DNA of 64,000 bases from an uncultured Planctomycetota bacterium. Its GTDB lineage: Bacteria > Planctomycetota > PLA2 > JAEUHO01. Position numbers and translations under genes: made by a program. This document shows positions 1,070 through 17,240 of this stretch, one piece after another (position 1 is the stretch's first letter; the number at the start of each line of letters is the position of its first letter). The DNA lies in NCBI GenBank assembly GCA_963752285.1, contig CAVVXN010000001.1, forward strand, positions 448,001-512,000, in the 5' to 3' direction. Below the pieces are notes generated by a model that had not been told where the DNA came from, made no database searches, and was given only the letters and a program-made list of their open reading frames with translations.

Positions 1070-3783
1070 CCCCCGATCCGGACGCCGGCGCGGGCCCGGG
1101 CGGCGGTCGCGCGCGCGGGGGGGGCGGCGCGCCTCGGGGCTTCGCCTCGCGGTGGGCGCGCGGCGCGGCGCGGCGTCGCGTCCCGGTCCTTTTCGCGACG
1201 CTGCTCCTCTTTGCCGCGGCCCTCCTGTTCGCGTGGAACCACCTCGGCATCGACACGAACCTCGACGAGATGCTCTCGGAGGACCTGCCCTTCCGGCGCG
1301 CGAACGCGCGCTTCGACGCGAAGTTCCCCCAGTCGGTGTCGAACCTCGTGATGGTCGTGGAGGCGGACACCCCCGAGGGCGCGCGGGACGCCGCGCACGA
1401 CCTCGCCGGCCGCCTCGAGGCCCGTCCCGACCTCTACGCGTACGTGCGCGTGCCCCGCGCGGAACCGTTCCTCGAGGCGCACGCGTTCTACTACCTCGAC
1501 CCGAAAGACCTCGACGACCTCGCCGACCGGCTGGTCCAGGTCCAGCCGTTCCTGGGCCGGCTCACGCGCGACCCGAGCCTCCGCGGTCTCTTCGAGATGC
1601 TCGCCCGTGCCCTCGAGGAGCGGGCGAAGGGCGGCGCGTTCGACGTGACGCCGCTCGTCCTGGAGGTGGACCGCGCGGTCTCGGCCGCGCGACAAGGCGC
1701 GCCGTACCGGACCTCCTGGCAGTCGCTCATGCGCGGCAAGCAGGAGCCGGAGAACGACCGACGGCAGTTCGTGCTGGCTCGGGCCGGGCTCGACTTCGAG
1801 AGCCTCTACCCGGCGCGGCGCGCCATCGCGACGGCCCGCGCGCTCTTCCGAGAGACCGCGCGGGAGCTGGTCGCGCGCTCCCACGGCCTCGCGGCGGCCC
1901 CGCGCCTCCGCGTCACGGGCGGTCTCGCGATGGAGCACGAGGAGCTCGAGACGGTCACGCGCGGCATCGAGTGGCTCGGTCTCGCGAGCTTCGTCCTCGT
2001 GGGCGTGATCCTCGGCGTCGGACTCCGCTCCGGCCGTCTCGTCCTCGCGTCTCTCGCGACCCTCGTGGTGGGGCTCGCGCTGACGGCGGCCTTCGCGGCC
2101 CTGACGGTGGGACACTTGAACCTGATCTCCGTCGCGTTCGGCGTGCTGTACATCGGGCTCGGCGTGGATTACGCGATCCACTTCTCGCTTGGCTACCGGG
2201 ACGCGCTGGCCGAGGGCCGGTCGAACCTCGACGCGATCACCGAGGCCGCGGCCGACGTGGGGAGGCCGCTCTTCCTCTGCGCCGCCACGACCGCGCTCGG
2301 GTTCTACGCGTTCGTGCCCACCGCGTACCGGGGCGTGTCGGAGCTCGGGTGGATCTCGGGCTCGAGCATGTTCATCGGCCTCGCGGTCACGCTGACCGTC
2401 CTGCCGGCGCTCCTCCACGCCCTGCCGCTCCCGCCCGGCCGCGCCCGATCGCGTCCGTCGGCGCCCGGCCGGATCGCGCGGCTCGCCGACGTCCCCGTGC
2501 GCCACCCGGTCGCCGTGGTCTCGGGAGCCCTCGTGCTGGGCGTCGTCGCCGCCGCGCTGCTCCCCTTCATCCGGTTCGACCTGAACCCGGTGGACCTCCG
2601 CGACCCCGACACGGAGTCGGTCTCGACCTTCCGCGACCTCCTCGCCACGAGCCCGACGCCACCGTGGAGCGTGACGGTGCTCGCCGACGACGCGGCCGCC
2701 GCCACGGAGCTGAAGCGACGCCTCTCGGCCCTTCCGACCACCGACCGGGTCGTCACGATCGACAGCTTCGTGCCCGACGCGGACGACCAGCAGCGGACCC
2801 GCGGCGTCCTCGAGGACCTTTCGCTCGCCATGGGGCCGGGCCTCCTCACGCTCGCGCCGAAGGCCGCGCCCTCGTTCGAGGCGCAGCGCGCGGCCGTCGC
2901 GGACGCGCGCCAGGAGGACGACCGCTGGCTCTCGACCGACGCGGGGAGGAACGACGCCGCCGCACGCGCGCTCGCGAGCGACCTCGCGGGGCTCGAGCGC
3001 GCGCTCGATCACCCCGGCGCGGCCGCCCTGCTCCAGCGGCTGGAGGCCTCGCTCCTCGACACGATGCCCGAGAACCTCGATCGGCTCGAGAAGGCGCTCG
3101 GGGCCCAGGCGTTCACGGCGGACGACCTCCCCGCGGCGCTCGTCGCGAGGTGGCGGTCGCCCGGCCCGGGCGCGCGATGGCGCGTGGAGGCGTTCCCCGC
3201 GCGCGACCTCGACGACATCGACGCCCTGCGGAGCTTCGTGCAAAGCGCGCAGTCGATCGCGCCCGAGGCCACCGGCGCGCCCGTGATGATCGTGGAGTCG
3301 GGCTACGCGATCGTGCGTGCGTTCTTCGAGGCGCTCGCCCTCTCGGCGGGAGCGTGCACGCTCGTGCTGCTCCTCCTGCTCCGGCGGCCCGGCGCGGTGC
3401 TGCTCGTCCTCTCGCCGCTCGTGTACGCCGCGCTCCTCACGGGCGGCGCGACGGTCCTGCTCGGTGTGCCGTTCAACTTCGCGAACGTCATCGCGCTGCC
3501 CCTCCTCTTCGGCATCGGCGTGGACGGCGGGATCCACGTCGTCCATCGCGCGCGTTCGGCGCCCCGAGGCGAGAACCCGATCCGGACGAGCACGGGGCGG
3601 GCCGTCGTGTTCTCGGCCCTGACGACGATCGGGTCGTTCGGGAACCTGGCGTTCTCGCAGCACCCCGGCACGGCGAGCATGGGGCTGCTCCTGACCGTGG
3701 GCGTCCTCGCCGTGCTCCTCGCCACGCTCGTCCTGCTCCCGGCGCTGCTCGCCCTCCGCGACCGGCGGGTGGGCCGCGCGTGA
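1066..3783 (+). CDS. hpnN: Hopanoid transporter HpnN (MMPL/RND family); start uncertain, probably CTG 1066 or ATC 1063
   Basis: Two TM bundles with GLGVDYAIH and GIGVDGGIH motifs, FNFANVIALPLLFG, SQHPGTASMG; lies in a hopanoid cluster. Confidence 0.9.
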   Translation: MTPDPDAGAGPGGGRARGGGGAPRGFASRWARGAARRRVPVLFATLLLFAAALLFAWNHLGIDTNLDEMLSEDLPFRRANARFDAKFPQSVSNLVMVVEADTPEGARDAAHDLAGRLEARPDLYAYVRVPRAEPFLEAHAFYYLDPKDLDDLADRLVQVQPFLGRLTRDPSLRGLFEMLARALEERAKGGAFDVTPLVLEVDRAVSAARQGAPYRTSWQSLMRGKQEPENDRRQFVLARAGLDFESLYPARRAIATARALFRETARELVARSHGLAAAPRLRVTGGLAMEHEELETVTRGIEWLGLASFVLVGVILGVGLRSGRLVLASLATLVVGLALTAAFAALTVGHLNLISVAFGVLYIGLGVDYAIHFSLGYRDALAEGRSNLDAITEAAADVGRPLFLCAATTALGFYAFVPTAYRGVSELGWISGSSMFIGLAVTLTVLPALLHALPLPPGRARSRPSAPGRIARLADVPVRHPVAVVSGALVLGVVAAALLPFIRFDLNPVDLRDPDTESVSTFRDLLATSPTPPWSVTVLADDAAAATELKRRLSALPTTDRVVTIDSFVPDADDQQRTRGVLEDLSLAMGPGLLTLAPKAAPSFEAQRAAVADARQEDDRWLSTDAGRNDAAARALASDLAGLERALDHPGAAALLQRLEASLLDTMPENLDRLEKALGAQAFTADDLPAALVARWRSPGPGARWRVEAFPARDLDDIDALRSFVQSAQSIAPEATGAPVMIVESGYAIVRAFFEALALSAGACTLVLLLLLRRPGAVLLVLSPLVYAALLTGGATVLLGVPFNFANVIALPLLFGIGVDGGIHVVHRARSAPRGENPIRTSTGRAVVFSALTTIGSFGNLAFSQHPGTASMGLLLTVGVLAVLLATLVLLPALLALRDRRVGRA

Positions 3784-4778
3784 CGCCACGCGCGGGTATG
3801 CTGGCGCCCCGCGCGCGTGGCCGCGCGGCGCGAGGGAGGAAGCGCTTGCGGACGGTGCGCGCGAGTCGCTGGGCGCCGTGGGCCCTCCTCCTCGCCGGGA
3901 GCCTCGGCGGGTGCGGGTCGCTCAACCAGAACGTGTTCGAGCTGAACCGCCACGTGGCCAACGCGGTGCGCCCTGTCGTGGGCCTGATCCTCCTCGTGCC
4001 CGAGCCGCTCCGCGACCGCGTACACGCGCTCCTCGAGAACCTCCACTACGGCGACGTGGTCGTGAACCAGCTGCTGCAGGGGAAGCCCGAGCTCGCGGGA
4101 CGGGACCTCGTGCGGTGGGTGGTCAACTCCACCCTGGGCCTCGCGGGCCTCTTCGACGTCGCGAAGGAGCTCGGGTACGAGGCCCACGACGAGGACTTCG
4201 GTCAGACGCTCGCGGTCTGGGGGTTCCCCGAGGGCGAGTACCTCGTGCTGCCGCTCGTGGGGCCGAGCACCTCGCGCGACGCCGCCGGCCTCCTGATCTC
4301 GTACTTCACGGACCCGTCTCGCTACGTCCCGAGCGGGCTCGCGGCGGAGACCCTGACGGTCGTCTCGTACGCGGACCAGGCCGTCGGCTCCCGGAAGGGC
4401 CAGGCGACGCTCGCGTCGGAGGCGATCGACGAATACGAGTTCGCGAAGGAGGCCTACCGCCAGCACCGCCGGTTCCTGATCTACGACGGCCGCCCGCCCC
4501 TCGCGGGCGGCTCCGACCTCGACGCGGCGCTCGACGCGCTCGAGAAGGAGACGGGGAAGGACACCGGGAAGGGCACGGGACGGGCCGGCGGGCCGGGCGC
4601 GGAGGCGAAGGAGGGCGCGCCGACGGTCGAGGGCCTTCCGGGACTCGAGGACCTCGGCGCCGGGGCTCCGGTGCGTTCCGTCGAGGACCTGCCGGGCCTC
4701 GACGACGTCGGGCCGGACGCGACGGAGTCGCCGCCCGCCGGCGCGGCGACGCTGCCGGGTCTCGAAGAGTCGAAGTGA
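3780..4778 (+). CDS. mlaA: MlaA/VacJ family lipoprotein with low-complexity C-terminal tail; start could be 3798 or 3855
   Basis: Lipobox-like LGGC, NSTLGLAGLFDVA, EDFGQTLAVWG, YLVLPLVGPSTSRDA. Confidence 0.88.
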   Translation: MTPRAGMLAPRARGRAARGRKRLRTVRASRWAPWALLLAGSLGGCGSLNQNVFELNRHVANAVRPVVGLILLVPEPLRDRVHALLENLHYGDVVVNQLLQGKPELAGRDLVRWVVNSTLGLAGLFDVAKELGYEAHDEDFGQTLAVWGFPEGEYLVLPLVGPSTSRDAAGLLISYFTDPSRYVPSGLAAETLTVVSYADQAVGSRKGQATLASEAIDEYEFAKEAYRQHRRFLIYDGRPPLAGGSDLDAALDALEKETGKDTGKGTGRAGGPGAEAKEGAPTVEGLPGLEDLGAGAPVRSVEDLPGLDDVGPDATESPPAGAATLPGLEESK

Positions 4779-4808
4779 CGACGGTCCCGGGGCTACGATC
4801 GGCCGCGC

Positions 4809-5849
4809 ATGCCGCGCCGGGCCTCGATCGTCGTCTCGCTCCTCGCCGCCGCCGCGGGCGTCGGCGTCCTCGTCCACCTCTTCGCGACGACCGACCTCGC
4901 GAGCCGGGTCGGCACCCTGCCTCCCGCGGTGCTCCTCGGCGTCCCCGCCTTCGCGATCGCCGCCGCGCTCGACACGGTTTCGTGGGTCTGGGCGTTCCCG
5001 CGCGAGGCGCGGGACGTGCGTCCCTCGTTCGCCGCGCTCTTCGTGATCCGCCTCGCGGGCGAGGCGATCAACAACGCGCTCGCCTCGGCGTACGTGGCGG
5101 GCGAGCCGGTGAAGGGGCTCCTCGCCTCGCGCCACGGGCCCCGTCCGGCGATCGGGCTCGCGTCGGCGCTCGTCGGCAAGACCACCACCGTGCTCGGCGA
5201 GGTGCTCTTCCTGCTCCTCGGCGTCGCCGTCGCGCGGGCGGTGCTGCCGCGTGACCACCCGATCGTGTCGCTCCTCCTGCCGATCGCGGGGGTGGGGCTC
5301 GGCGTCGTCCTCGTGGGCATCTTGTTCCAGACGAGACGGGTGTTCGGGCGCGGTACGCGACTGCTCCGGGCGCTTCGCCTCGGCCCGCGCCGTGTCTACG
5401 ACCGCGCGCTCCCCGCGGCCGACGCCATCGACGACGCCGTCCGCGGCTACTACCGGCATCAGCGCACGGACTTTCTCGTCTCCACCCTGTTCGGGTTCCT
5501 CGGTTGGGTCGCGGGCGCCTTCGAGGTCTGGCTGTTCCTCCGCCTCGCGACGCCGGCCGAGGACCCCCTCGCGCTCGCGGTCGTCGTGGAGGCGGCCGTC
5601 GCCGTCGTGAAGGGCCTCTCGTTCTTCGTGCCCGCCTCGGTCGGCGCGCAGGAGGGGGGGATCGCGTGGCTGTTCGGCGCGCTCGGCCTCGGCGTCGAGA
5701 CGGGCCTCCTCTACGCGCTGCTCCGTCGCGCACGCGAGGTCGTGTGGATCGGGATCGGGTTCGTGGCGCTCGGCGTGCTGGTGCGGCGGCCCGCGCGCGC
5801 GCCGGTCGGGGCCGAAGCGGGCCTCTCCGCGGAGGCCGGCCCGGGATAG
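4809..5849 (+). CDS. Lysylphosphatidylglycerol-synthase TM / flippase-like membrane protein (UPF0104/HpnL-like)
   Basis: Multi-TM; GEAINNALASAYVAGEPVK, FFVPASVGAQEGG, LLRRAREVVW. Confidence 0.8.
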   Translation: MPRRASIVVSLLAAAAGVGVLVHLFATTDLASRVGTLPPAVLLGVPAFAIAAALDTVSWVWAFPREARDVRPSFAALFVIRLAGEAINNALASAYVAGEPVKGLLASRHGPRPAIGLASALVGKTTTVLGEVLFLLLGVAVARAVLPRDHPIVSLLLPIAGVGLGVVLVGILFQTRRVFGRGTRLLRALRLGPRRVYDRALPAADAIDDAVRGYYRHQRTDFLVSTLFGFLGWVAGAFEVWLFLRLATPAEDPLALAVVVEAAVAVVKGLSFFVPASVGAQEGGIAWLFGALGLGVETGLLYALLRRAREVVWIGIGFVALGVLVRRPARAPVGAEAGLSAEAGPG

Positions 5850-5988
5850 GGCGCCACGGCCCCGGCGGCGGTCGTCCCGTCCCGCGCCGGCGCCTCCCGC
5901 CATTCGCGATTCGTTCGGGCGCACCGTGGTAGAACCCGGGCGCCGGGGGGGCAGTCGGGCCCGATCCCCGCATCCACGAGGTACGAGG

Positions 5989-6795
5989 GTGCGCCTCCCC
6001 CGCCTGGCCCTCCTCACGGGACTCCTCGCGGCCGGGACCGCGGCCCCCGTCGCGGGCGCGGCGAACGGCTGCTCCGGGGCGCGCACGAGCGAGCTCCCCC
6101 GGGACGAGAGCCGGATCGAGGTCGGCCGCCCCGAGCCTGCCCCCGCGGCCTCGGCGCCCGCTCGGCCGGCGGAACGTCCGACGACGTCCCCGACGACCCC
6201 GGCGGGCGGGGCGCCCGCTTCGGGCCCCGCGCGACCGGCGCTCCCGCCGCTCGCGGAGAGCGCGTTCACGCCGCTCGTCCTCGACGGGGCCCGCGGCGGA
6301 TCGCTCGCGTACGACCTCGAGGGCGGCGTCGAGGCGGTCGGGGCCATGCTCCTCGACTACGACCATGCGGACGGACAGCGCGCGTGGGCCGAGACGTACC
6401 GCACCGTGGGCCGCGACGGCGACCGAGAGCGCGCGGAGTGGAAGTTCCGCGGGAAACTCGGGGTCGCCCCCCGCGTCGTCCTCGATCTCGAGCGGGAGCG
6501 CGTCGAGGGAGACGCGATCCGCGTGCGCTTCCAGCTCTCGGAGACGGCGTTCGGGTTGAAGCGGTTCTTCGGAGACTGGCGCGTCGAGCCCGTCGCCGGC
6601 GTCCCGGACCGCGCCCACGTGACCGCGCGTGTCTTCATCGACTCGGGTCTCCCGTTCGTGAACGCCTCGCACGACGACGTGCGGGACGGGCTCCGCGAGG
6701 ACGCGCGCCTCATGCGGGCGTGGATGGACCGGCGGCTCGCGTCCGCGCGGTCCACGGGCGCCGAGGCCCCGGGTCGTCCTGGAGGTGGTCGATGA
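5989..6795 (+). CDS. Exported SRPBCC/START-like (cyclase/dehydrase fold) protein
   Basis: Signal-like N-terminus, Pro/Ala linker, then LLDYDH..W and LKRFFGDWRVEP pattern of SRPBCC domains; stop overlaps the ino1 start (ATGA). Confidence 0.55.
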   Translation: MRLPRLALLTGLLAAGTAAPVAGAANGCSGARTSELPRDESRIEVGRPEPAPAASAPARPAERPTTSPTTPAGGAPASGPARPALPPLAESAFTPLVLDGARGGSLAYDLEGGVEAVGAMLLDYDHADGQRAWAETYRTVGRDGDRERAEWKFRGKLGVAPRVVLDLERERVEGDAIRVRFQLSETAFGLKRFFGDWRVEPVAGVPDRAHVTARVFIDSGLPFVNASHDDVRDGLREDARLMRAWMDRRLASARSTGAEAPGRPGGGR

Positions 6796-8153
6796 ACGCC
6801 GTTCCGATCGATCCCTGTCGCGGCCGGCTGGGCGTCCTGCTCCCGGGCATGGGCGCGGTCGCCACGACCTTCATCGCGGGCGTCGAGCTCGCGAAGAAGG
6901 GGAAGGGCGACCTCTTCGGGTCCGTCACGCAGCACCAGCACATCCGGCTCGGCAAGCGCTACGAGGAGCGGCGTCCGCTGATTCGCGAGGTGGTCCCGCT
7001 CGAGAAGCCCGAGAACCTCGTCTTCGGCGGTTGGGATCTCTTCCCGGACGACGCGTGGCAGGCGCAGGAGAAGGCGGGCGTCCTCTCCGCCGCGACGCTC
7101 GCTCCCGTCGAGCAGGAGCTCCGCGGGATCCGACCGATGCCCGGCGCGTACGACCCGGCGTTCCTCAGGAACCTCGTCGGGACGCACGTGAAGAAGGGCG
7201 GCTCGAAGATGGACCTCGCGCGCCAGGTCATGGACGACGTCGAGCGGTTCCGCGAGGCGCACGACCTCGAGCGTCTCGTCATGGTGTGGTGCGGCTCGAC
7301 GGAATCGCACCTCGTACCCGGTCCGCACCACCAGACGATCGAGGCGTTGGAGGAGGCGTTCGAGCGTCACCCCGAGGTCGTCCCGCCGTCGATGATCTAC
7401 GCGTACGCGGCGCTCCGCCTCGGCGTTCCGTACGCGAACGGCGCCCCGAACCTCTCCGTGGACGTCCCCGCGATGGTCGCGCTCGCCGAGACGCGAGGTG
7501 TCCCCATCGCCGGCAAGGACTTCAAGACCGGGCAGACGCTCCTGAAGACGGTGATCGCGCCGGGGTTGAAGGCGCGCATGCTCGGCCTCCAGGGCTGGTA
7601 CTCGACCAACATCCTCGGGAACCGCGACGGCGAGGTGCTCGACGACCCCGGCTCCTTCAAGACGAAGGAGGAGAGCAAGCGCGCGGTCCTCGACTCCATC
7701 CTCGAGCCGGAGCTCCATCCCGCCCTCTACGGGAACGTGACGCACAAGATCCGCATCGACTACTACCCGCCGCGCGGGGACGCGAAGGAGGGCTGGGACA
7801 ACATCGACATCGTCGGCTGGCTGGGCATGCCGATGCAGATCAAGGTCAACTTCCTCTGCCGGGACTCGATCCTCGCCGCGCCCCTCGTCCTCGACCTGGC
7901 GCTCTTCCTCGACCTCGCGAAGCGGAGCGGGCTCGCCGGCATCCAGGAGTGGCTGTCCTTCTACTTCAAGGCCCCCCTCTGCCGTTCGGACCTACGTCCC
8001 GAGCACGGGCTCTTCGTGCAGGAGCTCAAGCTCATGAACACGCTCCGGATCCTCATCGGGGAGGAGGTGCTCGACCACGCCGGGCTCGACTACTACGATC
8101 CCGAGCGGGGCACGCCGGTCGTCGCGCCCCCGCCGCGACGCCCCGCGCCGTGA
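6792..8153 (+). CDS. ino1: myo-Inositol-1(3)-phosphate synthase
   Basis: GMGAVATT, FGGWD, GKDFKTGQT, STNILGNRDG, YYPPRGDAKEGWD, CRDSILAAP, SFYFKAP; GGAGG SD upstream. Confidence 0.95.
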   Translation: MNAVPIDPCRGRLGVLLPGMGAVATTFIAGVELAKKGKGDLFGSVTQHQHIRLGKRYEERRPLIREVVPLEKPENLVFGGWDLFPDDAWQAQEKAGVLSAATLAPVEQELRGIRPMPGAYDPAFLRNLVGTHVKKGGSKMDLARQVMDDVERFREAHDLERLVMVWCGSTESHLVPGPHHQTIEALEEAFERHPEVVPPSMIYAYAALRLGVPYANGAPNLSVDVPAMVALAETRGVPIAGKDFKTGQTLLKTVIAPGLKARMLGLQGWYSTNILGNRDGEVLDDPGSFKTKEESKRAVLDSILEPELHPALYGNVTHKIRIDYYPPRGDAKEGWDNIDIVGWLGMPMQIKVNFLCRDSILAAPLVLDLALFLDLAKRSGLAGIQEWLSFYFKAPLCRSDLRPEHGLFVQELKLMNTLRILIGEEVLDHAGLDYYDPERGTPVVAPPPRRPAP

Positions 8154-8180
8154 CCGCCGTCGCGGGACGGCCCGCCGCCC

Positions 8181-8205
8181 GGCGCGCGCGCGGGTCGCGC
8201 GCGCC
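8181..8205. promoter_or_regulatory. GC-rich hairpin in the ino1-HAD gap (possible mRNA stabiliser or attenuator)
   Basis: GGCGCGCGCG-cgggt-CGCGCGCGCC, 10-bp perfect stem, no U-tract. Confidence 0.3.
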
Positions 8206-8260
8206 AGAACTTGGATCCCCGTCACCCACCGGTTGAGATTCCGGTTTCCCTCGCCGAGAC

Positions 8261-8935
8261 GTGATGCTCCCCGACGCGATCCTCTTCGACTTCGGCGGCA
8301 CGCTGGATGCCGACGGCGTCCCGTGGAAGGACCGGTTCCGCGCGCTCTTCGAGGCCGAGGGCGCGACGCTCGGTCCCGAGGCGTTCGACCGCGCGTTCTA
8401 CGACGCGGACGACCCGATCGTGGACCGCGCGGACCCGGGGAGCACGTACGCCGCGACGGTCGAGGAGCTGTCCCGCGCCCTCGCGGCGGCCGTCGGCCGG
8501 CCCGATGCCGCGGCGCGCGTCGCCGCGCGCTTCCTCGGTGCGTCACGGGCGCGCATCGACGCGAACCTCGCCGTGCTTCGTCGCCTGGCGAGGCGCCACC
8601 GGATCGGGGTCGTCTCGAACTTCTACGGAAACCTCGACGCCGCGCTCCGCGAGACGGGGCTCGACGAGGTCGTCGAGGCCGCCGCCGACTCGGCCCGCGT
8701 GGGCGCGAAGAAGCCCGACGCCGCGATCTTCGCGTGGGCGCTCTCGCGACTGGGCGTCCCGCCCGGGCGGGCGGTGATGGTCGGCGACTCCGTCGGGCGC
8801 GACGTGGAGGGCGCCCGTCGTCTCGGCATGCCGTATCGGCTGCTGCTCCGCGCCGAGGCGACCGCGCCGCCGGCCGGCGTGGACCCCGCCTGGGTCATCC
8901 GCTCCCTCGGGGAGCTCGAGGAGGGTCTCTCGTGA
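8261..8935 (+). CDS. HAD-superfamily hydrolase (phosphatase-like)
   Basis: FDFGGTLD, VVSN, KKPD, VMVGDS..RDVEGA. Confidence 0.9.
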   Translation: MMLPDAILFDFGGTLDADGVPWKDRFRALFEAEGATLGPEAFDRAFYDADDPIVDRADPGSTYAATVEELSRALAAAVGRPDAAARVAARFLGASRARIDANLAVLRRLARRHRIGVVSNFYGNLDAALRETGLDEVVEAAADSARVGAKKPDAAIFAWALSRLGVPPGRAVMVGDSVGRDVEGARRLGMPYRLLLRAEATAPPAGVDPAWVIRSLGELEEGLS

Positions 8936-9666
8936 GCGACGCGGTGATCGAGTCCGGCGGCGTCATCGCGGCCGGAGAAGGAAGTCGTCTGCGCGAGCGG
9001 GGGAGCAAGGCGCTCGTCGAGGTGGGCGGGGAGGCGCTGCTCGGACACGCGATCCGCCGCCTCCTCTCGGCGGGCGTAAAGCGGGTGGTGGTCATCGTCC
9101 GCGAGGAGGACCGCGCGCTCGAGCCGTGGATCCGGAGTCGCTTCCCCGACGTGGACGTAGACGTCGTCGTGAAGACCACCGCCTCGTCGGCCGAGAGCCT
9201 CTGCGAGGTCGTGAATCGGCTCGACGTTCCGCGCGTCCTGGTCTCGACCGTGGACGCCGTGCTGCCCGACGACGCGTTCCTCGCGTTCGCGCGCGCGGCC
9301 GCCGCGCGCCCGCCCGACGCCCTGGGCCTCGGCGTCACGCCGTGGGTGGACGACGAGAAGCCCCTCTGGGCCGACTGGGACGACACGGGCCGCGTGACCG
9401 CGCTGGGCGGGCCCTCGGGCAGGGGCGCGACGGCCGGTCTCTACGTCGTCCCGCGCGACTTGCCCTCGCTGGTGGGGGAGGGCGCGGGGCGTCCCCTTCG
9501 GTCGCTGCTCGGGACCTGGGTCGGGCTCGGTCGGCCGACGTGGGCCGAGGTGCTCGAGAAGGTCGTGGACGTGGACCGTCCGATCGACGTGGCGGAGGCC
9601 GAGTCGCTCTGGCGCGACGGGGGGCCGGCCGGACGGGACGATCGCGACGCGGGAGCCTCCTCTTGA
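8932..9666 (+). CDS. Nucleotidyltransferase (NTP_transferase family; candidate inositol-phosphate cytidylyltransferase)
   Basis: GVIAAGEGSRL...KALVEVGG, DDEKPLW, VDVDRPIDV; GTGA overlap with the HAD gene. Confidence 0.85.
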   Translation: MSDAVIESGGVIAAGEGSRLRERGSKALVEVGGEALLGHAIRRLLSAGVKRVVVIVREEDRALEPWIRSRFPDVDVDVVVKTTASSAESLCEVVNRLDVPRVLVSTVDAVLPDDAFLAFARAAAARPPDALGLGVTPWVDDEKPLWADWDDTGRVTALGGPSGRGATAGLYVVPRDLPSLVGEGAGRPLRSLLGTWVGLGRPTWAEVLEKVVDVDRPIDVAEAESLWRDGGPAGRDDRDAGASS

Positions 9667-10535
9667 CCCCGCCCCGTCTCCTCGGCGTCTACCGCGAGGC
9701 CGCCCACTCTCCGGGCCGCGTGGGCGACGACGCCCGCGTCCTCGAGCGCGTGGCGGAGCGCCTTCGGAGCGCCGGGTGCGAGGTCGTGCTCGTGGGCCCC
9801 GACGCGCTCGCGGACGCCGTCTGTGGATCGGTCCCGGACCTGGTGTTCGCGATGTGCGAGCAGGCGTCGGCCCTCGAGGTCCTCGAGGGCCTCGCGCCGA
9901 AGGGCGTGCGCTTCGTGAACGAGGTGGGCGCGATCCGGAACACGTTCCGCGACCGCATGCTGCCCCGCCTCGCGGCGCTCGGCGACGCGTTCCCCCCGAG
10001 CCGGCTCGTCCCGACCGCCGGGTCCGACGATCCCGCGGCCGGCGCCGCCTACGACGGCCTCGGCCCGGTATGGGTGAAGCGCGGCGACTTCCACCAGACC
10101 CGCGCGGGCGACGTCACGTTCGCGGCCGACGGCGATCAGGTGGCCCACGCGCTCCTCGCGCTCGCGCGCCGCGACGTCGAGAACGCGGTCGTGCAGGTCC
10201 ACGTGCCGGGCGACCTCGTGAAGTTCTACGGCGTCGGGCTCGGAGCCGACGACTGGTTCTGCCACTTCCACCACGCGGGGCAGCGCCTCGCCGGCACGCC
10301 GTACGAGGGAGCGCGGCTGGCCGCGCTCGCCCGGCGCGCGGCCGGTCTGCTCGGCCTCGAGGTCTACGGCGGCGACGCCATCGTCCGGGCCGACGGCGGC
10401 CTCGTGGTCATCGACGTGAACACCTGGCCGTCGTTCGCGCTCGTGCGCGAGGAGGCGGCCGAACGGATCGCGGCGCACCTGCTCTCCCGGCTCCGGGAGC
10501 CGGCGGGTGCCGTCGCGCAAGAGGGAGACGCATGA
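9663..10535 (+). CDS. ATP-grasp fold enzyme with ITPK1-like motifs
   Basis: PVWVKRGDFH, VVQVHVPGDLVKFYGVG, YGGDAIV, VIDVNTWPSF; TTGA overlap with the upstream gene. Confidence 0.7.
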   Translation: MTPPRLLGVYREAAHSPGRVGDDARVLERVAERLRSAGCEVVLVGPDALADAVCGSVPDLVFAMCEQASALEVLEGLAPKGVRFVNEVGAIRNTFRDRMLPRLAALGDAFPPSRLVPTAGSDDPAAGAAYDGLGPVWVKRGDFHQTRAGDVTFAADGDQVAHALLALARRDVENAVVQVHVPGDLVKFYGVGLGADDWFCHFHHAGQRLAGTPYEGARLAALARRAAGLLGLEVYGGDAIVRADGGLVVIDVNTWPSFALVREEAAERIAAHLLSRLREPAGAVAQEGDA

Positions 10536-11860
10536 GCGCCTTCGAGGCCGGTCCGCGATCCCGGGCGATCTTCGAGCGCGACCAGCGCCACATGGCGCCG
10601 GGTCTGCAGTCGGTCGCGCTCTACGCGCCGATCGCGATGGACCACGGCCACGGCGCCGAGCTCTTCGACGCCGACGGCCGCCGGTACGTAGACTTCCTCG
10701 CCGGCGTCGCCGTCGCGAGCCTGGGCGCGGCTCACCCGCACTGGGTGAAGCGCATGCAGGAGCAGGCGTCCCGCGTCGTCCACGGCTCGTTCGCGACCGA
10801 GAACCGTGCGCGCTTCCTGGAGCTGCTCGCGTCCACGACCCCCGAGGGCCTGAAGCGCATCCAGCTCTACTCCGGTGGGGCCGAGGCCGTCGAGGCGTCG
10901 TTCCGCATGGCGAAGTCGGTCACGAAGGGCTACGAGGTCGTCGGCTTCTACGGCGGCTTCCACGGCAAGACGGGCGGCGTGCTCGGCCTCCTCGGCAGCG
11001 ACACGAAGAAGGCGCTCGGCCCGTACATGCCCGGCCAGCGCCTGGCGCCGTACGCGTACTGCTATCGGTGTCCTCTCTCGCTCACGCACCCGTCGTGCGG
11101 CATCGCGTGCGCGGAGCAGCTCCGGGACGTGATCCGGTACCAGACGGAGGGAAAGCTGTCGGCCGTGATCGTCGAGCCCGTGCAAGGCACGGCCGGCAAC
11201 GTCGTGCCGCCGAAGGGGTTCCTGTCGGCGATCGCCCAGATCGCGCGCGAGGCCGGTGCGCTTCTGATCGCCGACGAGATGATCACCGGGTTCGGCCGGA
11301 CGGGTCGGATGTGGGGCGTCGAGCACGAGGGTCTCGTCCCCGACGCGATGACGATCGGGAAGGGCATCGGCTCGGGCTTCCCCATGAGCGGTCTCGTGAC
11401 ACGCGAGGATCTCGCTTCCGCGCCGCCGTTCGGCCTGCCTTCGGGGTCGTCGTCCTCGTACGGGGGCAACCCGTTCGCCGCGACGGCGGGGCTCGCGACG
11501 CTGGAGGTCATCCTGGAGGAGGGCCTCGTCGAGCGGTCCCGGACACTCGGGGCGCGCATGCTCGAACGCCTGAAGGAGATGCAGGAGCGACACCCGTTCA
11601 TCGGAGACGTCCGCGGTCAGGGCCTCCTCATCGGGGTCGAGCTCGTTCGGGACCGGGCGACGAAGGAACCCCTCCCGAAGAGCGTCACGCTCGACCTCTT
11701 CCACCGCGCCCTGAGCCGCGGGCTCCTCTCGATGAGCTACGGCTCGTCCATCCGGATCAACCCGCCGCTCGTCCTGACCGACGACCAGGCGGACGAGGGC
11801 CTCCAGGTGCTCGACGAGGTCTTCGGCGAGGTGGCCCGCGAGGGCCGGTGGCGGGGGTGA
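10532..11860 (+). CDS. Class-III PLP-dependent aminotransferase
   Basis: SGGAEAVE, GFHGKT, VEPVQGTAG, LIADEMITGFGRTG, TIGKGIGSGFP, GDVRGQGL. Confidence 0.93.
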   Translation: MSAFEAGPRSRAIFERDQRHMAPGLQSVALYAPIAMDHGHGAELFDADGRRYVDFLAGVAVASLGAAHPHWVKRMQEQASRVVHGSFATENRARFLELLASTTPEGLKRIQLYSGGAEAVEASFRMAKSVTKGYEVVGFYGGFHGKTGGVLGLLGSDTKKALGPYMPGQRLAPYAYCYRCPLSLTHPSCGIACAEQLRDVIRYQTEGKLSAVIVEPVQGTAGNVVPPKGFLSAIAQIAREAGALLIADEMITGFGRTGRMWGVEHEGLVPDAMTIGKGIGSGFPMSGLVTREDLASAPPFGLPSGSSSSYGGNPFAATAGLATLEVILEEGLVERSRTLGARMLERLKEMQERHPFIGDVRGQGLLIGVELVRDRATKEPLPKSVTLDLFHRALSRGLLSMSYGSSIRINPPLVLTDDQADEGLQVLDEVFGEVAREGRWRG

Positions 11861-12864
11861 CGCGCCTTCGCGGGGCGATCGTCGGGCTCGGCGCGATCGC
11901 GCGCGGCGGTCACTGGCCGCGCTGGCGGGTGAACGACCGCGTCTTGATCGTGGGCGCGGTGGAGATCGCCGCGCCGGGCCCCTCGGACGAGGCCACGGGC
12001 CTGCGCGTCTGGCCGACCCTCGACGCGCTCCTGGCCGAGGAGCCGCTCGACTTCGTGGACGTCTGCACGCCGCCCGACCGCCACGCGGAGCTCGTCGAGG
12101 TCGCGCTCGGCCGCGGGCTCCACGTGCTCTGCGAGAAGCCGCTCGTGGTCCGCCGGGCCGACATGGACCGCGTGGCCCGCGCGGCGGACGCCGGCGACCG
12201 TGTCCTGTTCACCGTGCACAACTGGCTCCACGCCCCGATCGTCGAAGCGGTCTCCCGCTTCGTGCGCGCGGGACGCGTGGGCCGGGTCGTCGAGGCCACG
12301 TGGACCGTCGAGCGCACGGGCCCGTCCGCGACGGTGGAGAAGGAGGGCAACTGGCGCCTGGACCCCGCCGTGGCGGGCGGCGGCATCCTCGTGGACCACG
12401 GCTGGCACGCGCTCTACGTGCTCCTCGACTGGCTCGGCGTGCGGCCCGAGCGGGTGGCGGCGCGGCTCGAGCGGCGCCGCCACGTGGACCTCGCTGTCGA
12501 GGACACCGCGCACGTCGAGCTCGAGCTCCCCGGCGCGCGGTCCGTCCTCGACCTCACCTGGGCGGCCGACCGACGGCGGAACGAGGCGTCCGTCGTGGGG
12601 ACCGAGGGATCCATCCGACTCCTCGACGACCACCTCGTCCTGGATGGGCCGCGCGGCGAGACGTTGCGGTTCGACGCGCCCCTCTCGGGCGGCTCCACGC
12701 ATCCCGACTGGTTCGACGCGACGGCGGCGCGCTTCCTGGACGAGGTCGATGGGCGGTCGCCCCGCGGCGCGAACCTCGCCGTCGCCACGACGTGCTTTTG
12801 CGTTCTCGAGGCCGCGTGGCGCTCCGCCGCCGACGGCGGACGCCCGGCGCGGGTGGCCGACTGA
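11857..12864 (+). CDS. Gfo/Idh/MocA family NAD(P)-dependent oxidoreductase (inositol dehydrogenase-like)
   Basis: IVGLGAIA, VDVCTPP..H, HVLCEKPL, AGGGILVDHGWH, VEDTA. Confidence 0.92.
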   Translation: MTRLRGAIVGLGAIARGGHWPRWRVNDRVLIVGAVEIAAPGPSDEATGLRVWPTLDALLAEEPLDFVDVCTPPDRHAELVEVALGRGLHVLCEKPLVVRRADMDRVARAADAGDRVLFTVHNWLHAPIVEAVSRFVRAGRVGRVVEATWTVERTGPSATVEKEGNWRLDPAVAGGGILVDHGWHALYVLLDWLGVRPERVAARLERRRHVDLAVEDTAHVELELPGARSVLDLTWAADRRRNEASVVGTEGSIRLLDDHLVLDGPRGETLRFDAPLSGGSTHPDWFDATAARFLDEVDGRSPRGANLAVATTCFCVLEAAWRSAADGGRPARVAD

Positions 12865-12865
12865 G

Positions 12866-14131
12866 ATGCGTCTCGTCGTGGTCATCTCCGACGATGTCGA
12901 GCGCGAAGCCGCGCTCGCGAACGTCGGCGGGATCCCGCTTCTGAGGCGGACGGTGCTCTGCGCGCGCAAGCGCGGGTTCGACAACATCGAGGTCGTCGTG
13001 CGCGCGGACGTGGCCCGCGTGGCCCGCGCCCTCGACGGGACGGGCGCCCGCGTGGCGCCCGAGGCGACCGTCAAGGCGACGCCGACGCTGCTCCTCGCGC
13101 CGACGTTCCTGCCGGCCGACTCCTGGCTCGCCACGCACGCCGTCGTGACGGACGCGGCGACCGCGGTCCACGGCGACGGCCGGGTCGCCGTCACCCTCGA
13201 GGGAAGCGAGGCCGAGCGCCTCGCGCGCGGCGACCTGCGTCCCGCGGCCCTCGCGCGGCTCCTCCCGGATCCGCTCGCTGCGCCGCCTCCGGAGGGAGAC
13301 GACGCGTCGGACGCCGCGGGGCGCCGCGCGCTCGAGAGGAAGCTGCTCCAGTCGCTGGTGAAGCCGAGCGAGGGCTTCATGTCGCGCCACGTCGAGCGGC
13401 GGATCTCGCTCGCCGTCACGCGCCGCTTGATGAACGAGCGGATCACGCCGAACCAGATGACGTGGATCAGCACGGGCGTCGGGCTCCTCGGCGCCTGCTG
13501 CTTCCTGTTCTCCGGGCGCGGTTTCGCGATCGCGGGCGCGGTGCTCTTCCTCGTGCACTCGATCCTCGACGGGTGCGACGGCGAGCTCGCCCGTCTCCGT
13601 CACCAGGAGAGCCGCGCGGGCGGCCTCCTGGACTTCTGGTCCGACAACGTGGTGCACGTCGCCGTGTTCCTCGCGCTGGGCGCGGGTTGGTCGCGCGAGG
13701 CGGCCTCGTTCCTGCCGCTCGTGATCGCCGGCCTCGCGGTCTTCGGGACCGTCTTCGCCGCCGCCTGGGTCCACGCGACGACCCTCGTGTCGCGGGACCA
13801 AGGGCCTCCCGGCCCGCTCTACGTCTCGGTCGCGCCCAACGCCGCGGCGTCGCGGGCGGTGCGCCTCGCCGACGTCCTCTCGCGCCGCGACTTCATCTGG
13901 CTCGTGCTCCTCCTCGCGATCGTCGGATGGATCCGGGTCTTCCTCGTGCTCGCCGCCGTCGGCGCGCCGCTCTACGCCGCGCTCCTCGTGTGGATCCGGA
14001 TCCGGGAGGCGCGGCACGCCGCGGGCGGGGGGCCCCGGCACGAGGGCCCGCCGGCCGCCAACGACGCCGCCGACGTCGCCCCCGAGGACACGTTCGGGGG
14101 CCCGGGCCGGCCCGCCCCGCCGGTAGGATGA
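12866..14131 (+). CDS. CDP-alcohol phosphatidyltransferase (DIPPS-like) with a degenerate N-terminal nucleotidyltransferase-like domain
   Basis: Signature LDGCDGELAR...GGLLDFWSD; KPSEGFMSRHVERRIS...ITPNQMT; N-terminal VGGIPLLRRTV without the GxGxR loop. Confidence 0.88.
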   Translation: MRLVVVISDDVEREAALANVGGIPLLRRTVLCARKRGFDNIEVVVRADVARVARALDGTGARVAPEATVKATPTLLLAPTFLPADSWLATHAVVTDAATAVHGDGRVAVTLEGSEAERLARGDLRPAALARLLPDPLAAPPPEGDDASDAAGRRALERKLLQSLVKPSEGFMSRHVERRISLAVTRRLMNERITPNQMTWISTGVGLLGACCFLFSGRGFAIAGAVLFLVHSILDGCDGELARLRHQESRAGGLLDFWSDNVVHVAVFLALGAGWSREAASFLPLVIAGLAVFGTVFAAAWVHATTLVSRDQGPPGPLYVSVAPNAAASRAVRLADVLSRRDFIWLVLLLAIVGWIRVFLVLAAVGAPLYAALLVWIRIREARHAAGGGPRHEGPPAANDAADVAPEDTFGGPGRPAPPVG

Positions 14132-14198
14132 CCGGCCGCGCTCCCGGGACGAGCGCCCCGGCCGGGAGCCGGGAGGGGCGGGAGCGCGAGCGGAAGAG

Positions 14199-16217
14199 AT
14201 GCACTCGACGGCGTCGCCCGCACTCGAGGATCGGCACGCCGCTGTGGCGGCGGGCGGCCCCGTGCGCCTCGCCGACCGGGCCCGCGAGGCGCTCCTAAGG
14301 GCCCGGGCCCAGCTGCTCCGGGTCCAGGCGCTCGACGGGTCCTGGTGCGCCGAGCTCGAGGGCGACTCGATCCTCGTCTCCGAGTACGTGCTCACGCAGT
14401 GGTTCCTCGGCCGGCAGGGTTCGCCGCGGGTGCGAAAGGCCGCCGAGACGCTCCGTCGCAGGCAGCGTCCCGACGGCGCGTGGTCGCTCTTCCCGGGCGG
14501 ACCCGACGAGCTGAGCGCGTCGGTCAAGGCCTACTTCGTGCTGAAGCTCTCGGGCGACGCGCCCGACGCGCCGCACATGGAGCGCGCCCGGCGGTCGATC
14601 CTCGCGCTCGGCGGCCTCGAGGCGACGAACTCGTACACGAAGATCTACCTCGCGATCTTCGGACAGTACCCGTGGGAGGGATGCCCCGCGATCCCTCCGG
14701 AGCTCGTCCTCTTCCCGTCGTGGTTCCCGTTCAACCTCTACGAGATGTCGTCGTGGTCGCGTGCGATCGTCGTGCCGCTCTGCCTGATCTGGGCGAAGCG
14801 GCCTCACGTGACGGTGCCGGAGCGCGCCTCGATCGCCGAGCTTTGCGCCGCCGCGTCCCACGAGTCGGCAGGCGTCGTGCGCTTCGTGGGCCGCCACCCG
14901 GTCTGGACGCGGGTCTTCGGCGCGGCCGACCGCCTGCTGAAGTCGCTCGAGCGCCTCCGCCTCCGGCCCCTCCGCCGCCTCGCCATGCGACGAGCGGAGG
15001 CGTGGATCCGGGAGCGCCTCGCGGGCTGCGACGGGGTCGGCGCGATCTTCCCGCCGATCGTGAACACGATCGTCGGCTTCTCTGCGCTCGGGTACCCCGT
15101 CGACGAGCCCGTCGTCGCGAGCCAGATCGCGGAGCTCGAGCGCCTCGGGATCGAGGACGACGAGACGTTCCGCGTCCAGCCGTGCTTCTCGGCCCTGTGG
15201 GACACGGCCCAGGTGCTCAGCGCGCTCCTCGGCGCCGGTGTGGCGCCGGACGACCCCGCGGTCCTCGGGGGCGCGCGCTGGCTTCTCGCCCGCGAGGTGC
15301 GTCGCAAGGGCGACTGGGCCGTGAAGGTCCGGGGCGTGCCGGCCGGCGGCTGGTACTTCGAGTACCGGAACGAGTGGTATCCCGACTGCGACGACACGGC
15401 CGAGGTGCTCGGCGTGCTCGCGCGCGTGCGCTTCCCCGACCCCGACGAGGACGCGCGGCGCACGGCGGCGATCGAGCGCGGCCTCGCGTGGCTCCTCGGG
15501 ATGCAGAGCCCGACGGGCGGGTGGGCGGCGTTCGACCGCGCGGTGACGAAGCGCTTCCTCACCTACGTCCCGTTCGCCGACCACAACGCGATGCTCGACC
15601 CGCCGGTGGCGGACGTCACGGGACGCGCGCTCGCGGCCCTCGCCCACGCCGGCGTGCCCCAGGGGCACCGGGCCGTTCGCCGCGCGGTCCGGTTCCTCCG
15701 ACGCGAGGAGGAGGAGGACGGCACCTGGTTCGGCCGGTGGGGCGCGAACTACGTGTACGGGACCTGGCTCGCGCTGACCGGTCTCGTCCGCAGCGGCGAG
15801 GACCCGGACGCACCGTGGGTCCGCCGCTCGGCGGGCTGGCTCCAGGACCGCCAGAACCCGGACGGCGGCTGGGGCGAGAGCCTCCGGTCGTACGACGAGC
15901 CCGCCCTGAAGGGGCGTGGCGAGAGCACGGCGGCGCAGACCGCGTGGGCCCTCCTCGGGCTCCTCGCGCTCGGGCCCGCGGGGGACCCGGCCCGCGCGTC
16001 GGCCGAGCGGCGCGGCGTCGAGCGCCTCCTCGCGACGCAGCTACCCGACGGGTCCTGGTTCGACGAGTCCTTCACGGGCACCGGGTTCCCGCGCGTCTTC
16101 TACCTGCGGTACCACCTCTACGCGACGCTCTTCCCGGCGCTCGCGCTGGCCACCTGGCTCGACGTCGAGGGGGCGTCCCCCGCGGACCGCCCCGCGTCGA
16201 GCGGGAGAAACCGATGA
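14199..16217 (+). CDS. shc: Squalene-hopene cyclase
   Basis: YPDCDDTAE (DxDDTA), QW repeats (QRPDGAW, QSPTGGW, QNPDGGWGE, QLPDGSW), WFGRWGANYVYGT, TGTGFPRVFYLRYHLY. Confidence 0.97.
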   Translation: MHSTASPALEDRHAAVAAGGPVRLADRAREALLRARAQLLRVQALDGSWCAELEGDSILVSEYVLTQWFLGRQGSPRVRKAAETLRRRQRPDGAWSLFPGGPDELSASVKAYFVLKLSGDAPDAPHMERARRSILALGGLEATNSYTKIYLAIFGQYPWEGCPAIPPELVLFPSWFPFNLYEMSSWSRAIVVPLCLIWAKRPHVTVPERASIAELCAAASHESAGVVRFVGRHPVWTRVFGAADRLLKSLERLRLRPLRRLAMRRAEAWIRERLAGCDGVGAIFPPIVNTIVGFSALGYPVDEPVVASQIAELERLGIEDDETFRVQPCFSALWDTAQVLSALLGAGVAPDDPAVLGGARWLLAREVRRKGDWAVKVRGVPAGGWYFEYRNEWYPDCDDTAEVLGVLARVRFPDPDEDARRTAAIERGLAWLLGMQSPTGGWAAFDRAVTKRFLTYVPFADHNAMLDPPVADVTGRALAALAHAGVPQGHRAVRRAVRFLRREEEEDGTWFGRWGANYVYGTWLALTGLVRSGEDPDAPWVRRSAGWLQDRQNPDGGWGESLRSYDEPALKGRGESTAAQTAWALLGLLALGPAGDPARASAERRGVERLLATQLPDGSWFDESFTGTGFPRVFYLRYHLYATLFPALALATWLDVEGASPADRPASSGRNR

Positions 16218-17215: not shown

Positions 17216-17240
17216 GCCGTCCGACGCGCGGGGGGCGCCG

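Follow-up and report, generated by a model that had tools for sequence, protein, structure and literature searches.

A 64,000-nucleotide stretch of DNA from an uncultured Planctomycetota bacterium (the window) carries nine + strand genes at 4809-14131, set between hpnM-hpnN-mlaA and shc-hpnH-hpnA-hpnG of a hopanoid locus. All but one of them belong to a conserved eight-gene cassette that encodes an HpnL-like membrane protein, myo-inositol-1-phosphate synthase (Ino1), a HAD phosphatase, a nucleotidyltransferase, an ATP-grasp protein, a class-III aminotransferase, a Gfo/Idh/MocA dehydrogenase, and a CDP-alcohol phosphotransferase. These eight genes make a testable candidate for a new headgroup pathway, found in at least 599 species-level stretches from several phyla and repeatedly in hopanoid loci. 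We class the cassette as a variant of the CDP-alcohol headgroup pathways, with a real chance of encoding a new lipid class. That it is functionally tied to hopanoid loci, as one member of a widespread unnamed headgroup cassette, we consider plausible at somewhat less than an even chance. Hopanoids rank among the main membrane lipids of bacteria and give rise to the geohopane biomarkers, and the synthesis of their headgroups is only partly known. To our knowledge, HpnL, HpnM, and the MlaA-like protein HpnS have no assigned function.

Conservation of the cassette and its linkage to hopanoid genes

We scanned species-representative genomes with the ATP-grasp protein and obtained at least 600 stretches, at least 599 of which contained confirmed ATP-grasp relatives. 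The best 80 of these loci, together with flanks of up to 10 kb, were searched with the window proteins by tblastn; 41 of the 80 have full 10-kb flanks. Within 10 kb, HAD and nucleotidyltransferase genes were each present in 40 of the 41 full-flank loci, the CDP-alcohol transferase in 35, the HpnL-like gene in 31, and Ino1 of either of two types in 31. The six core enzymes occurred together in 31 full-flank loci and all eight cassette genes in 24. The aminotransferase and the dehydrogenase were both present in 38 of these loci and both absent in 3, with neither ever found alone; they form an optional, strictly co-varying module. The order HAD-NTP-ATPgrasp-AT-GFO was collinear throughout (NTP, nucleotidyltransferase; AT, aminotransferase; GFO, Gfo/Idh/MocA dehydrogenase). 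Since the gene set is collinear in other phyla, the block in the window is not a product of chance.

By the labels of their metagenome-assembled genomes (MAGs), the hosts of the 80 loci were Methylomirabilota/Rokubacteria (28), Acidobacteriota (26), Alphaproteobacteria (14), and Verrucomicrobiota (4), with one locus each from Nitrospirae, Chloroflexota, Binatia, Thermodesulfobacteriota, Deltaproteobacteria, and Pseudomonadota and two unclassified. Most of these MAGs came from soil and groundwater. The tree of the ATP-grasp proteins mostly tracks phyla, and the window copy is a long, unplaced branch. One ATP-grasp protein, from a MAG labeled Limnocylindria (Chloroflexota; L030), nests among near-identical Methylomirabilota copies, which could reflect gene transfer or a binning error.

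Genes of hopanoid synthesis (shc, hpnH, hpnA, hpnG, or squalene synthase) were found within 10 kb in 17 of the 41 full-flank loci and 21 of all 80. Among the weak tblastn labels behind these counts (hpnH at 40-41%, hpnA at 38%), some may mark different members of the same families. Adding the transport genes hpnN, hpnM, and mlaA raised the figures to 21 of 41 and 29 of 80, and adding dxs and ispH, which are common members of hpn loci, raised them to 32 of 41 and 45 of 80. Of 29 other window proteins searched as a control, 28 matched none of the 80 loci. The exception was a citrate synthase, encoded at 57086-58435 in the window, 43 kb from the cassette; 7 of the 80 loci, all Acidobacteriota (L010, L029, L044, L046, L051, L068, L071), have a homolog less than 10 kb from the cassette. 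Named relatives of this citrate synthase, 73-81% identical, belong to MAGs of Acidobacteriota/Thermoanaerobaculia, Planctomycetota, and Eremiobacterota.

Gene order varies between Alphaproteobacteria, Acidobacteriota, Methylomirabilota, and the window, and the linkage to hopanoid genes is kept. The alphaproteobacterial locus L070 reads hpnC-hpnD-hpnE-shc-Ino1-HAD-NTP-ATPgrasp-AT-GFO, and loci related to it run on through transferase-HpnL-like-mlaA-hpnN-hpnM-hpnA. The Methylomirabilales locus L006 reads hpnM-hpnN-hpnM-x-shc-HpnL-like-HAD-...-transferase-Ino1. In the acidobacterial locus L049, the cassette adjoins a squalene synthase gene followed by hpnG-hpnA-hpnH-shc, and dxs and ispH lie nearby. 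An earlier, sequence-only reading of the window had proposed such a gene-neighborhood survey for its idea of an inositol or amino-inositol headgroup cassette; the survey showed synteny of the cassette with shc and further hpn genes in relatives belonging to at least four phyla and did not refute that idea.

The START-like and flippase-like genes called for a different description from the one given in that reading. The START-like gene, which it had counted within the cassette, was absent from all 80 related loci (tblastn). Its product has a signal-peptide-like N terminus ending in Cys, followed by a Pro/Ala-rich linker; it looks like a secreted lipid-binding lipoprotein that stands outside the cassette, and it may be a lineage-specific periplasmic lipid carrier. 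For the protein described as flippase-like, the flippase domain (PF03706) stands, and the description is to be corrected in that the protein is, judged by its profile matches, an HpnL paralog. It scored 121 bits against the HpnL model TIGR03476, below the cut-off of 195.65; the HpnL-like copies in the cassettes of L006 and L049 scored 116-166 bits, and a second copy in L006 scored 166 bits.

Acidobacteriota also carry a second, divergent "mini" set, HpnL-like-HAD-ATPgrasp-transferase, which lacks the aminotransferase and dehydrogenase (L021, L029, L037, L044, L051, L063, L068, L071 (~500-3500, - strand); also L039, L049, L072). Eleven of the 13 ATP-grasp copies from mini sets fall in one Acidobacteriota paralog clade (SH-like approximate likelihood-ratio support, SH-aLRT, 100), and a single clade of all 13 was rejected by the approximately unbiased test (p-AU 1.5e-48); we discarded the idea that the mini set is an ancient second system. 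Separately, two conserved open reading frames (ORFs), 305 and 283 aa long, separate dxs from the HpnL-like gene in L049 (6161-7931) and are common to ~12-19 Acidobacteriota loci; neither matched a Pfam or NCBIfam family.

Predicted enzymes of the cassette

The CDP-alcohol transferase has the motif D-x2-D-G-x2-A-R-x8-G-x3-D-x3-D and exceeds the PF01066 gathering threshold, and D235, D238, G239, A242, R243, G252, D256, and D260 are invariant in 26 transferase sequences. Sequence matches were led by Archaeoglobus fulgidus AF2299 (E 2.5e-18) and IPCT-DIPPS (E 5e-15), followed by phosphatidylinositol-phosphate (PIP) synthases (E 1.1e-8). The predicted structure (predicted local distance difference test score, pLDDT, 82) superposes on AF2299 across both domains with a template-modeling (TM) score of 0.69-0.74 in Foldseek and matches the fold of 4mnd with a TM score of 0.62-0.64. 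Against NF041135, the model for bifunctional IPCT/DIPPS, the protein scored 92.8 bits vs. a cut-off of 580 and aligned only with profile positions 215-415, the DIPPS half. Its N-terminal domain of 150 residues is weakly nucleotidyltransferase-like, and the GxGxR loop is absent from this domain in 70 of 71 such ORFs. Because the loop has been lost and the likeness is weak, we read the domain as an IPCT domain that has degenerated, the active nucleotidyltransferase presumably being encoded by the separate gene. The loss of this P-loop also led us to reject the idea that the N-terminal domain of the mini-set transferase conceals a working cytidylyltransferase.

In common with IPCT/DIPPS and AF2299 (Protein Data Bank, PDB, 4mnd, 4o6m), the window transferase joins a cytosolic nucleotidyltransferase-like domain to a six-helix CDP-alcohol transferase with an identical catalytic motif; these proteins are its best sequence and fold matches, and the pathway likewise runs from Ino1. 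It differs from IPCT/DIPPS in that its N-terminal domain lacks the GxGxR loop, a separate nucleotidyltransferase is present, the hosts are mesophilic, and flippase-like and hopanoid genes are attached. The separate nucleotidyltransferase has a weak IspD-like match (PF01128, E 7.3e-7) and no phmmer match in the PDB at E ≤ 1e-3. Compared by BLASTP with the IPCT half of a fused protein from L006, it aligned with E 0.011 over only 39 residues and is therefore not a close relative of IPCT. The fused IPCT/DIPPS-like gene in L006 (within 16733-19055) lies 3′ of Ino1 and is followed by another HpnL-like gene; it retains an intact GxGxR loop and scores 218 bits against NF041135. Together, these two genes look like a second, simpler module for inositol-phosphate transfer.

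The product of 9663-10535 has no Pfam match, and its AlphaFold2 model (pLDDT 90.9) confirmed, at the level of predicted structure, an ATP-grasp superfamily fold. In Foldseek, the PDB matches at E ≤ 1e-3 numbered at least 500. Ddl, ITPK1, RimK, and LysX came first, at E ~1e-13, and the ITPK1 kinases 7tn5, 7tn7, and 2odt were among the top matches. K139, D251, and N253 are invariant; in our own reading, by analogy with the superfamily, K139 would bind ATP and D251 and N253 would bind Mg (D/E-x-N). In profile searches of the PDB, ITPK1 was matched at E 3.5e-3 over only ~45 C-terminal residues, and RimK-type ligases were matched slightly better (E 2.4e-4). Relatives at E ≤ 1e-3 numbered 1170 among 8000 scored candidates, all unnamed or generically named, and in a library clustered at 50% identity, the profile matched 1422, 967, and 506 clusters at E ≤ 1e-3, 1e-10, and 1e-30, respectively. 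The 967 clusters at E ≤ 1e-10 define a large unnamed ATP-grasp family, predicted to comprise cyclitol kinases that partner a cytidylyltransferase.

Domain fusions and gene retention suggest that the ATP-grasp protein is a kinase that feeds the cytidylyltransferase. When the top 150 family representatives were ranked by length, the first 12 were all fusions (P0243, P0244, P0282, P0323, P0348, P0352, P0354, P0361, P0371, P0373, P0250, P0266), 10 of the form NTP_transf::ATP-grasp, 1 HAD::NTP::ATP-grasp (802 aa), and 1 ATP-grasp::CDP-OH_P_transf (700 aa). Moreover, the ATP-grasp gene is present in all three full-flank loci that lack the aminotransferase and dehydrogenase, so it does not depend on an amine. 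On both grounds, a kinase is preferred over an amide ligase that would act on the amine of an inosamine, and we ranked the ligase lower.

Ino1 exceeds the gathering scores of both PF07994 and PF01658. Its orthologs, 62-74% identical, occur in 27 of the 80 loci, and a second, unrelated type of Ino1 occurs in 17 further loci; the use of two unrelated types in the same slot of the cassette points to inositol phosphate as a required input. The match to the actinobacterial model TIGR03450 was only 23 bits, which places the window protein in a different subfamily. The aminotransferase, of the GabT/omega group of class III, is 56-64% identical to its cassette orthologs in the 80 loci. The dehydrogenase has weak matches to IolG (TIGR04380, 42.9 bits) and scyllo-inositol dehydrogenase 5ya8, among many sugar dehydrogenases. 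In aminocyclitol antibiotic and rhizopine pathways, scyllo-inosamine is made by an inositol dehydrogenase and an aminotransferase and is then acted on by an inosamine kinase. The cassette resembles these pathways in applying a Gfo/Idh/MocA-type dehydrogenase, a pyridoxal-phosphate aminotransferase, and then a presumed kinase to myo-inositol. The scyllo-inosamine pathways differ in that they use DegT/StsC-type aminotransferases and kinases outside the ATP-grasp superfamily, and their products are soluble antibiotics or opines.

A possible headgroup route and its alternatives

We propose, tentatively and with slightly less than even confidence, a Kennedy-type route in which the headgroup is activated to a CDP-cyclitol and then moved to a lipid hydroxyl. 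Ino1 would convert glucose-6-phosphate to inositol phosphate, and the HAD phosphatase would release free myo-inositol, one ring hydroxyl of which would be oxidized by the dehydrogenase to yield an inosose. The aminotransferase would turn the inosose into an inosamine, the ATP-grasp enzyme would re-phosphorylate the cyclitol, and the nucleotidyltransferase would use CTP to form CDP-inosamine (or CDP-inositol in relatives without the amination pair). The membrane transferase of DIPPS/AF2299 type would then pass the phospho-cyclitol to a lipid hydroxyl. The MprF-type flippase domain of the HpnL-like protein may bring the product to the outer leaflet, and HpnN, HpnM, and MlaA may carry the product, or a hopanoid partner, to the outer membrane. 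The likeness to the Kennedy pathway is one of logic only (headgroup kinase, CTP activation, transfer to a lipid alcohol, and here also kinase::nucleotidyltransferase fusions), and the route would depart from it in using an ATP-grasp rather than a choline/ethanolamine-kinase fold and in making the cyclitol headgroup in situ. The sequence-only reading had seen this biochemical logic in Ino1, the nucleotidyltransferase, the DIPPS-like transferase, and the dehydrogenase/aminotransferase pair, and both gene content and logic proved right.

The synteny with hopanoid genes leads us to prefer a C35 hopanoid as acceptor; on this genomic context, the terminal polyol of a C35 bacteriohopanepolyol is the most likely acceptor, which would give a phosphodiester-linked aminocyclitol hopanoid. 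The full proposal is a new composite hopanoid in which a C35 polyol such as bacteriohopanetetrol bears a phosphodiester-linked inosamine at C-35, made by the ATP-grasp kinase route, flipped by the HpnL paralog, and exported by HpnN, HpnM, and MlaA in many soil and groundwater Acidobacteriota, Methylomirabilota/Rokubacteria, and Alphaproteobacteria. We regard it as possible but, taken whole, doubtful. By our own arithmetic, the predicted bacteriohopanetetrol-phospho-inosamine would have the formula C41H74NO11P and [M+H]+ at ~788.507. If the proposal is true, HpnL-type proteins gain a function, and a hopanoid bearing both N and P joins the biomarker inventory.

The known composite-hopanoid genes hpnI, hpnJ, hpnK, and hpnL (for bacteriohopanetetrol-glucosamine and the cyclitol ether) also equip a C35 hopanoid with an amino-sugar or aminocyclitol headgroup, and they lie in the hpn locus together with an HpnL-family membrane protein. 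In contrast to the linkage proposed here, that made by hpnI/J/K is glycosidic or an ether and is formed by the joint action of a glycosyltransferase, a deacetylase, and a radical SAM enzyme; the called genes of the window include none of the three. Indeed, the HpnI, HpnJ, HpnK, HpnP, and HpnR models had no match among those called genes, in agreement with the absence of hpnI/J/K first noted from the sequence alone.

Several points weigh against a phosphodiester-linked inosamine hopanoid. All substrates are ones that we infer, as are the sequence of reactions, the assignment of the ATP-grasp protein as a kinase, the role of the flippase, and the acceptor; the identity of the product and the amination of inositol likewise have the standing of predictions, with the acceptor either a hopanoid or a glycerolipid. 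Fold and profile searches cannot separate kinase from ligase, Ddl, RimK, and LysX scoring like ITPK1. The HAD and ATP-grasp genes persist without the amination pair, where a phosphatase-plus-kinase detour is unneeded if the input is unmodified inositol phosphate. The inosose aminotransferases known to us are of DegT type, not class III. DIPPS, among the closest solved relatives of the transferase, uses a soluble acceptor rather than a lipid, and we know of no substrates assigned to AF2299. Nor do we know of any phosphodiester-linked hopanoid, and none was found in full-text literature searches. In 9 of the 41 full-flank loci, the 10-kb flanks are free of hopanoid and isoprenoid genes, and none of the four Verrucomicrobiota loci, including both full-flank ones, has such a neighbor.

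The nearest described system, and a partial precedent by analogy, is the Bacteroides vulgatus-type cluster of Heaver et al. 2022 (PMC9246714). In the available text of that paper, the cluster combines a myo-inositol-phosphate synthase (MIPS), an NTP transferase, a CDP-alcohol transferase, and a HAD protein, and it is proposed to make inositol lipids via CDP-inositol. Matched by domain type, all four lie within 6792-14131 of the window, and a lysyl-phosphatidylglycerol-synthase-like (LPG_synthase_TM) gene is nearby in the Bacteroidetes cluster as well. As described there, the Bacteroidetes cluster differs in lacking the ATP-grasp, aminotransferase, and Gfo/Idh/MocA genes and any hopanoid context, and its own function is unconfirmed (PMC9246714). 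It occurs in organisms that lack hopanoids, so the core chemistry needs no hopanoid.

This precedent bears most directly on the alternative that the same headgroup is placed on diacylglycerol or another glycerolipid, giving an aminated phosphatidylinositol-like lipid that is co-regulated with hopanoids and co-exported via HpnN, HpnM, and MlaA. We see this as a possibility to be taken seriously, if not a probable one. The Bacteroidetes cluster is proposed, in the text available, to act on diacylglycerol or ceramide without hopanoids (PMC9246714), the nine full-flank loci free of hopanoid and isoprenoid neighbors fit a glycerolipid acceptor, and MlaA and MlaC homologs classically handle glycerophospholipids. 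Set against this, at least four phyla, each with its own gene order, have the cassette embedded between shc and hpnN, the soluble enzymes in L070 lie directly 3′ of hpnCDE-shc, and no plsC, cdsA, or other glycerolipid gene was seen among the conserved neighbors. Were the acceptor a glycerolipid, the cassette would make a new bacterial aminocyclitol phospholipid and would tie inositol lipids functionally to hopanoid transport.

Alternatively, the product might be a soluble compatible solute akin to di-myo-inositol phosphate (DIP), such as inosamine-phospho-inositol or a glycerophospho-cyclitol, formed by joining a CDP-cyclitol to inositol phosphate, with the HAD enzyme removing the terminal phosphate. 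The transferase is closest to DIPPS and AF2299, some sources annotate homologs as IPCT/DIPPS, and Ino1, a cytidylyltransferase, a DIPPS-like enzyme, and a phosphatase make a complete DIP gene set. A solute is nevertheless improbable: in 31 of the 41 full-flank loci, a gene with an MprF-type flippase domain lies inside the cassette, a solute would leave the association with genes of hopanoid synthesis and transport unexplained, the NF041135 score falls far below its cut-off, and the hosts are mostly soil and groundwater MAGs, whereas DIP is a solute of hyperthermophiles.

A little less probable again is a route of reversed polarity, in which the ATP-grasp enzyme phosphorylates a lipid polyol (for example, the C35 hydroxyl of bacteriohopanetetrol), the nucleotidyltransferase makes a CDP-lipid, the transferase adds inositol phosphate in the manner of PIP and AIP synthases, the HAD enzyme dephosphorylates the product, and the ring is then aminated. 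This order gives each gene one role without a phosphatase/kinase detour and would explain why the HAD and ATP-grasp genes persist without the amination pair. The nucleotidyltransferase is weakly similar to IspD, which acts on polyol phosphates, and CDP-alcohol transferases with phosphorylated acceptors are regularly paired with a phosphatase, as in the available account of the PIP phosphatase BT_1525 (PMC9246714). However, no soluble nucleotidyltransferase of MobA/IspD type is known to use a lipid substrate. The synthases of CDP-diacylglycerol and CDP-archaeol are integral membrane proteins of other families, and the transferase is nearer to DIPPS and AF2299 than to the PIP synthases that use CDP-diacylglycerol.

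Finally, it is very improbable that the locus is a coincidental mosaic, with the aminotransferase being HpnO (for 35-aminobacteriohopanetriol) and the other genes making ordinary phosphatidylinositol: HpnO is described as a class-III aminotransferase family protein in the available text of PMC12583986 and the gene does sit in a hopanoid locus, but it stays collinear between the ATP-grasp and dehydrogenase genes even in loci without a hopanoid neighbor, the substrate of HpnO is already an aldehyde and requires no dehydrogenase, and the unfailing company of the dehydrogenase argues against HpnO by context rather than by comparison with HpnO sequences.

The sequence-only reading knew of no characterized pathway with this combination of genes, and full-text literature searches found none; nor did they find, judged from their result listings, a published description of the cassette. 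One survey of shc neighborhoods, the preprint 10.1101/2025.07.29.667474, names hpnL, hpnM, hpnS, and hpnT in its available text, "HpnS" being its name for the mlaA-like gene. That text has no occurrence of "inositol," "CDP-alcohol," or "ATP-grasp"; it excludes the supplementary tables, which may list such families among unnamed "Other" neighbors. In the available text of another such survey (PMC12583986), "inositol" does not occur.

The locus in the window

With a G+C content of 68-77%, the raw ORF lists of the window were full of shadow frames; genes were therefore called by codon-position G+C and checked against Pfam and NCBIfam profiles. Sixteen consecutive co-oriented + strand genes run from hpnM at the window edge through hpnG at 18973 (Table 1). 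The shc, hpnH, hpnA, hpnN, and hpnM products all exceed their NCBIfam cut-offs, hpnG falling below, and mark a locus for hopanoid biosynthesis and transport. The content and placement of the nine-gene block as originally read were borne out by these profiles, with the START-like domain below threshold, the ATP-grasp domain recognized by fold only, and hpnG again below its cut-off.

Table 1. Genes of the hopanoid locus and the embedded cassette
Gene or product	Coordinates	Strand	Profile or other support
hpnM, MlaC-like periplasmic lipid carrier	2..1069	+	TIGR03481 243.3 bits (cut-off 160.1); PF05494 MlaC; 5′ end cut by window edge
hpnN, resistance-nodulation-division (RND) hopanoid transporter	1066..3783	+	TIGR03480 921.5 bits (cut-off 751.85)
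mlaA-like outer-membrane lipoprotein	3780..4778	+	PF04333 MlaA 174.4 bits (cut-off 25); 4-nt overlap with hpnN
HpnL-like membrane protein, MprF-type flippase domain	4809..5849	+	PF03706 LPG_synthase_TM 63.6 bits (cut-off 33.4)
Putative secreted/lipoprotein SRPBCC/START-like protein	5926..6795	+	Polyketide_cyc2 E 9.4e-4, below gathering score; Atlas 0.92 to Polyketide_cyc clusters
ino1, myo-inositol-1-phosphate synthase, long form	6792..8153	+	PF07994 294.5 bits; PF01658 112.6 bits
HAD-IA phosphatase	8261..8935	+	PF00702 67.4 bits
MobA/IspD-like nucleotidyltransferase, presumed CTP:cyclitol-phosphate cytidylyltransferase	8932..9666	+	PF12804 NTP_transf_3 58.7 bits
ATP-grasp enzyme, unnamed family, presumed cyclitol kinase	9663..10535	+	Predicted fold; no Pfam match
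Class-III (GabT/omega-type) aminotransferase	10532..11860	+	PF00202 Aminotran_3 315.6 bits
Gfo/Idh/MocA NAD(P) sugar or cyclitol dehydrogenase	11857..12864	+	PF22725 84 bits; PF01408 63.3 bits
DIPPS/AF2299-type CDP-alcohol phosphotransferase, putatively degenerate IPCT-like N-terminal domain	12866..14131	+	PF01066 44.6 bits (cut-off 22)
shc, squalene-hopene cyclase	14199..16217	+	TIGR01507 665.7 bits (cut-off 431.1)
hpnH, adenosylhopane synthase	16214..17215	+	TIGR03470 369.2 bits (cut-off 225.05)
hpnA	17241..18239	+	TIGR03466 474.6 bits (cut-off 367.65)
hpnG-like phosphorylase	18236..18973	+	TIGR03468 119.4 bits, below cut-off 187.1; PF01048
Squalene synthase-like gene, convergent, locus end	18978..19904	-	PF00494 122.4 bits; TIGR01559 88.3 bits, below cut-off

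Within the nine-gene block, 4-nt stop/start overlaps join five of the eight internal junctions (START-like/Ino1, HAD/nucleotidyltransferase, nucleotidyltransferase/ATP-grasp, ATP-grasp/aminotransferase, and aminotransferase/dehydrogenase), in keeping with the many overlaps originally remarked on. The remaining junctions are a 1-nt gap and larger gaps of 76 and 107 nt. An Rfam scan of 1-19500 at E ≤ 0.1 gave no match and hence no known riboswitch in either larger gap. Over the same interval, a promoter and terminator scan found no promoter-like site and one terminator-like site, within the dehydrogenase gene, which is fewer than in shuffled sequences; neither result is informative on operon structure.

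Elsewhere in the window, a NifB-like radical SAM protein with a C-terminal Nitro_FeMo-Co domain is encoded at 27974-29356 on the - strand, with no other nitrogenase genes seen in the region. At the 5′ end of the locus, in-frame ATG, GTG, and TTG codons of hpnN are absent from 1000-1269, yet the HpnN model aligns from about nt 1147. A CTG at 1066 lies 3′ of a GGAGA motif and forms a CTGA overlap (1066-1069) with the hpnM stop; this non-canonical CTG is the likely start of hpnN. The window HpnM matches the MlaC/HpnM models in two stretches and may be a tandem MlaC-like protein. In L006, by contrast, two separate hpnM genes flank hpnN.

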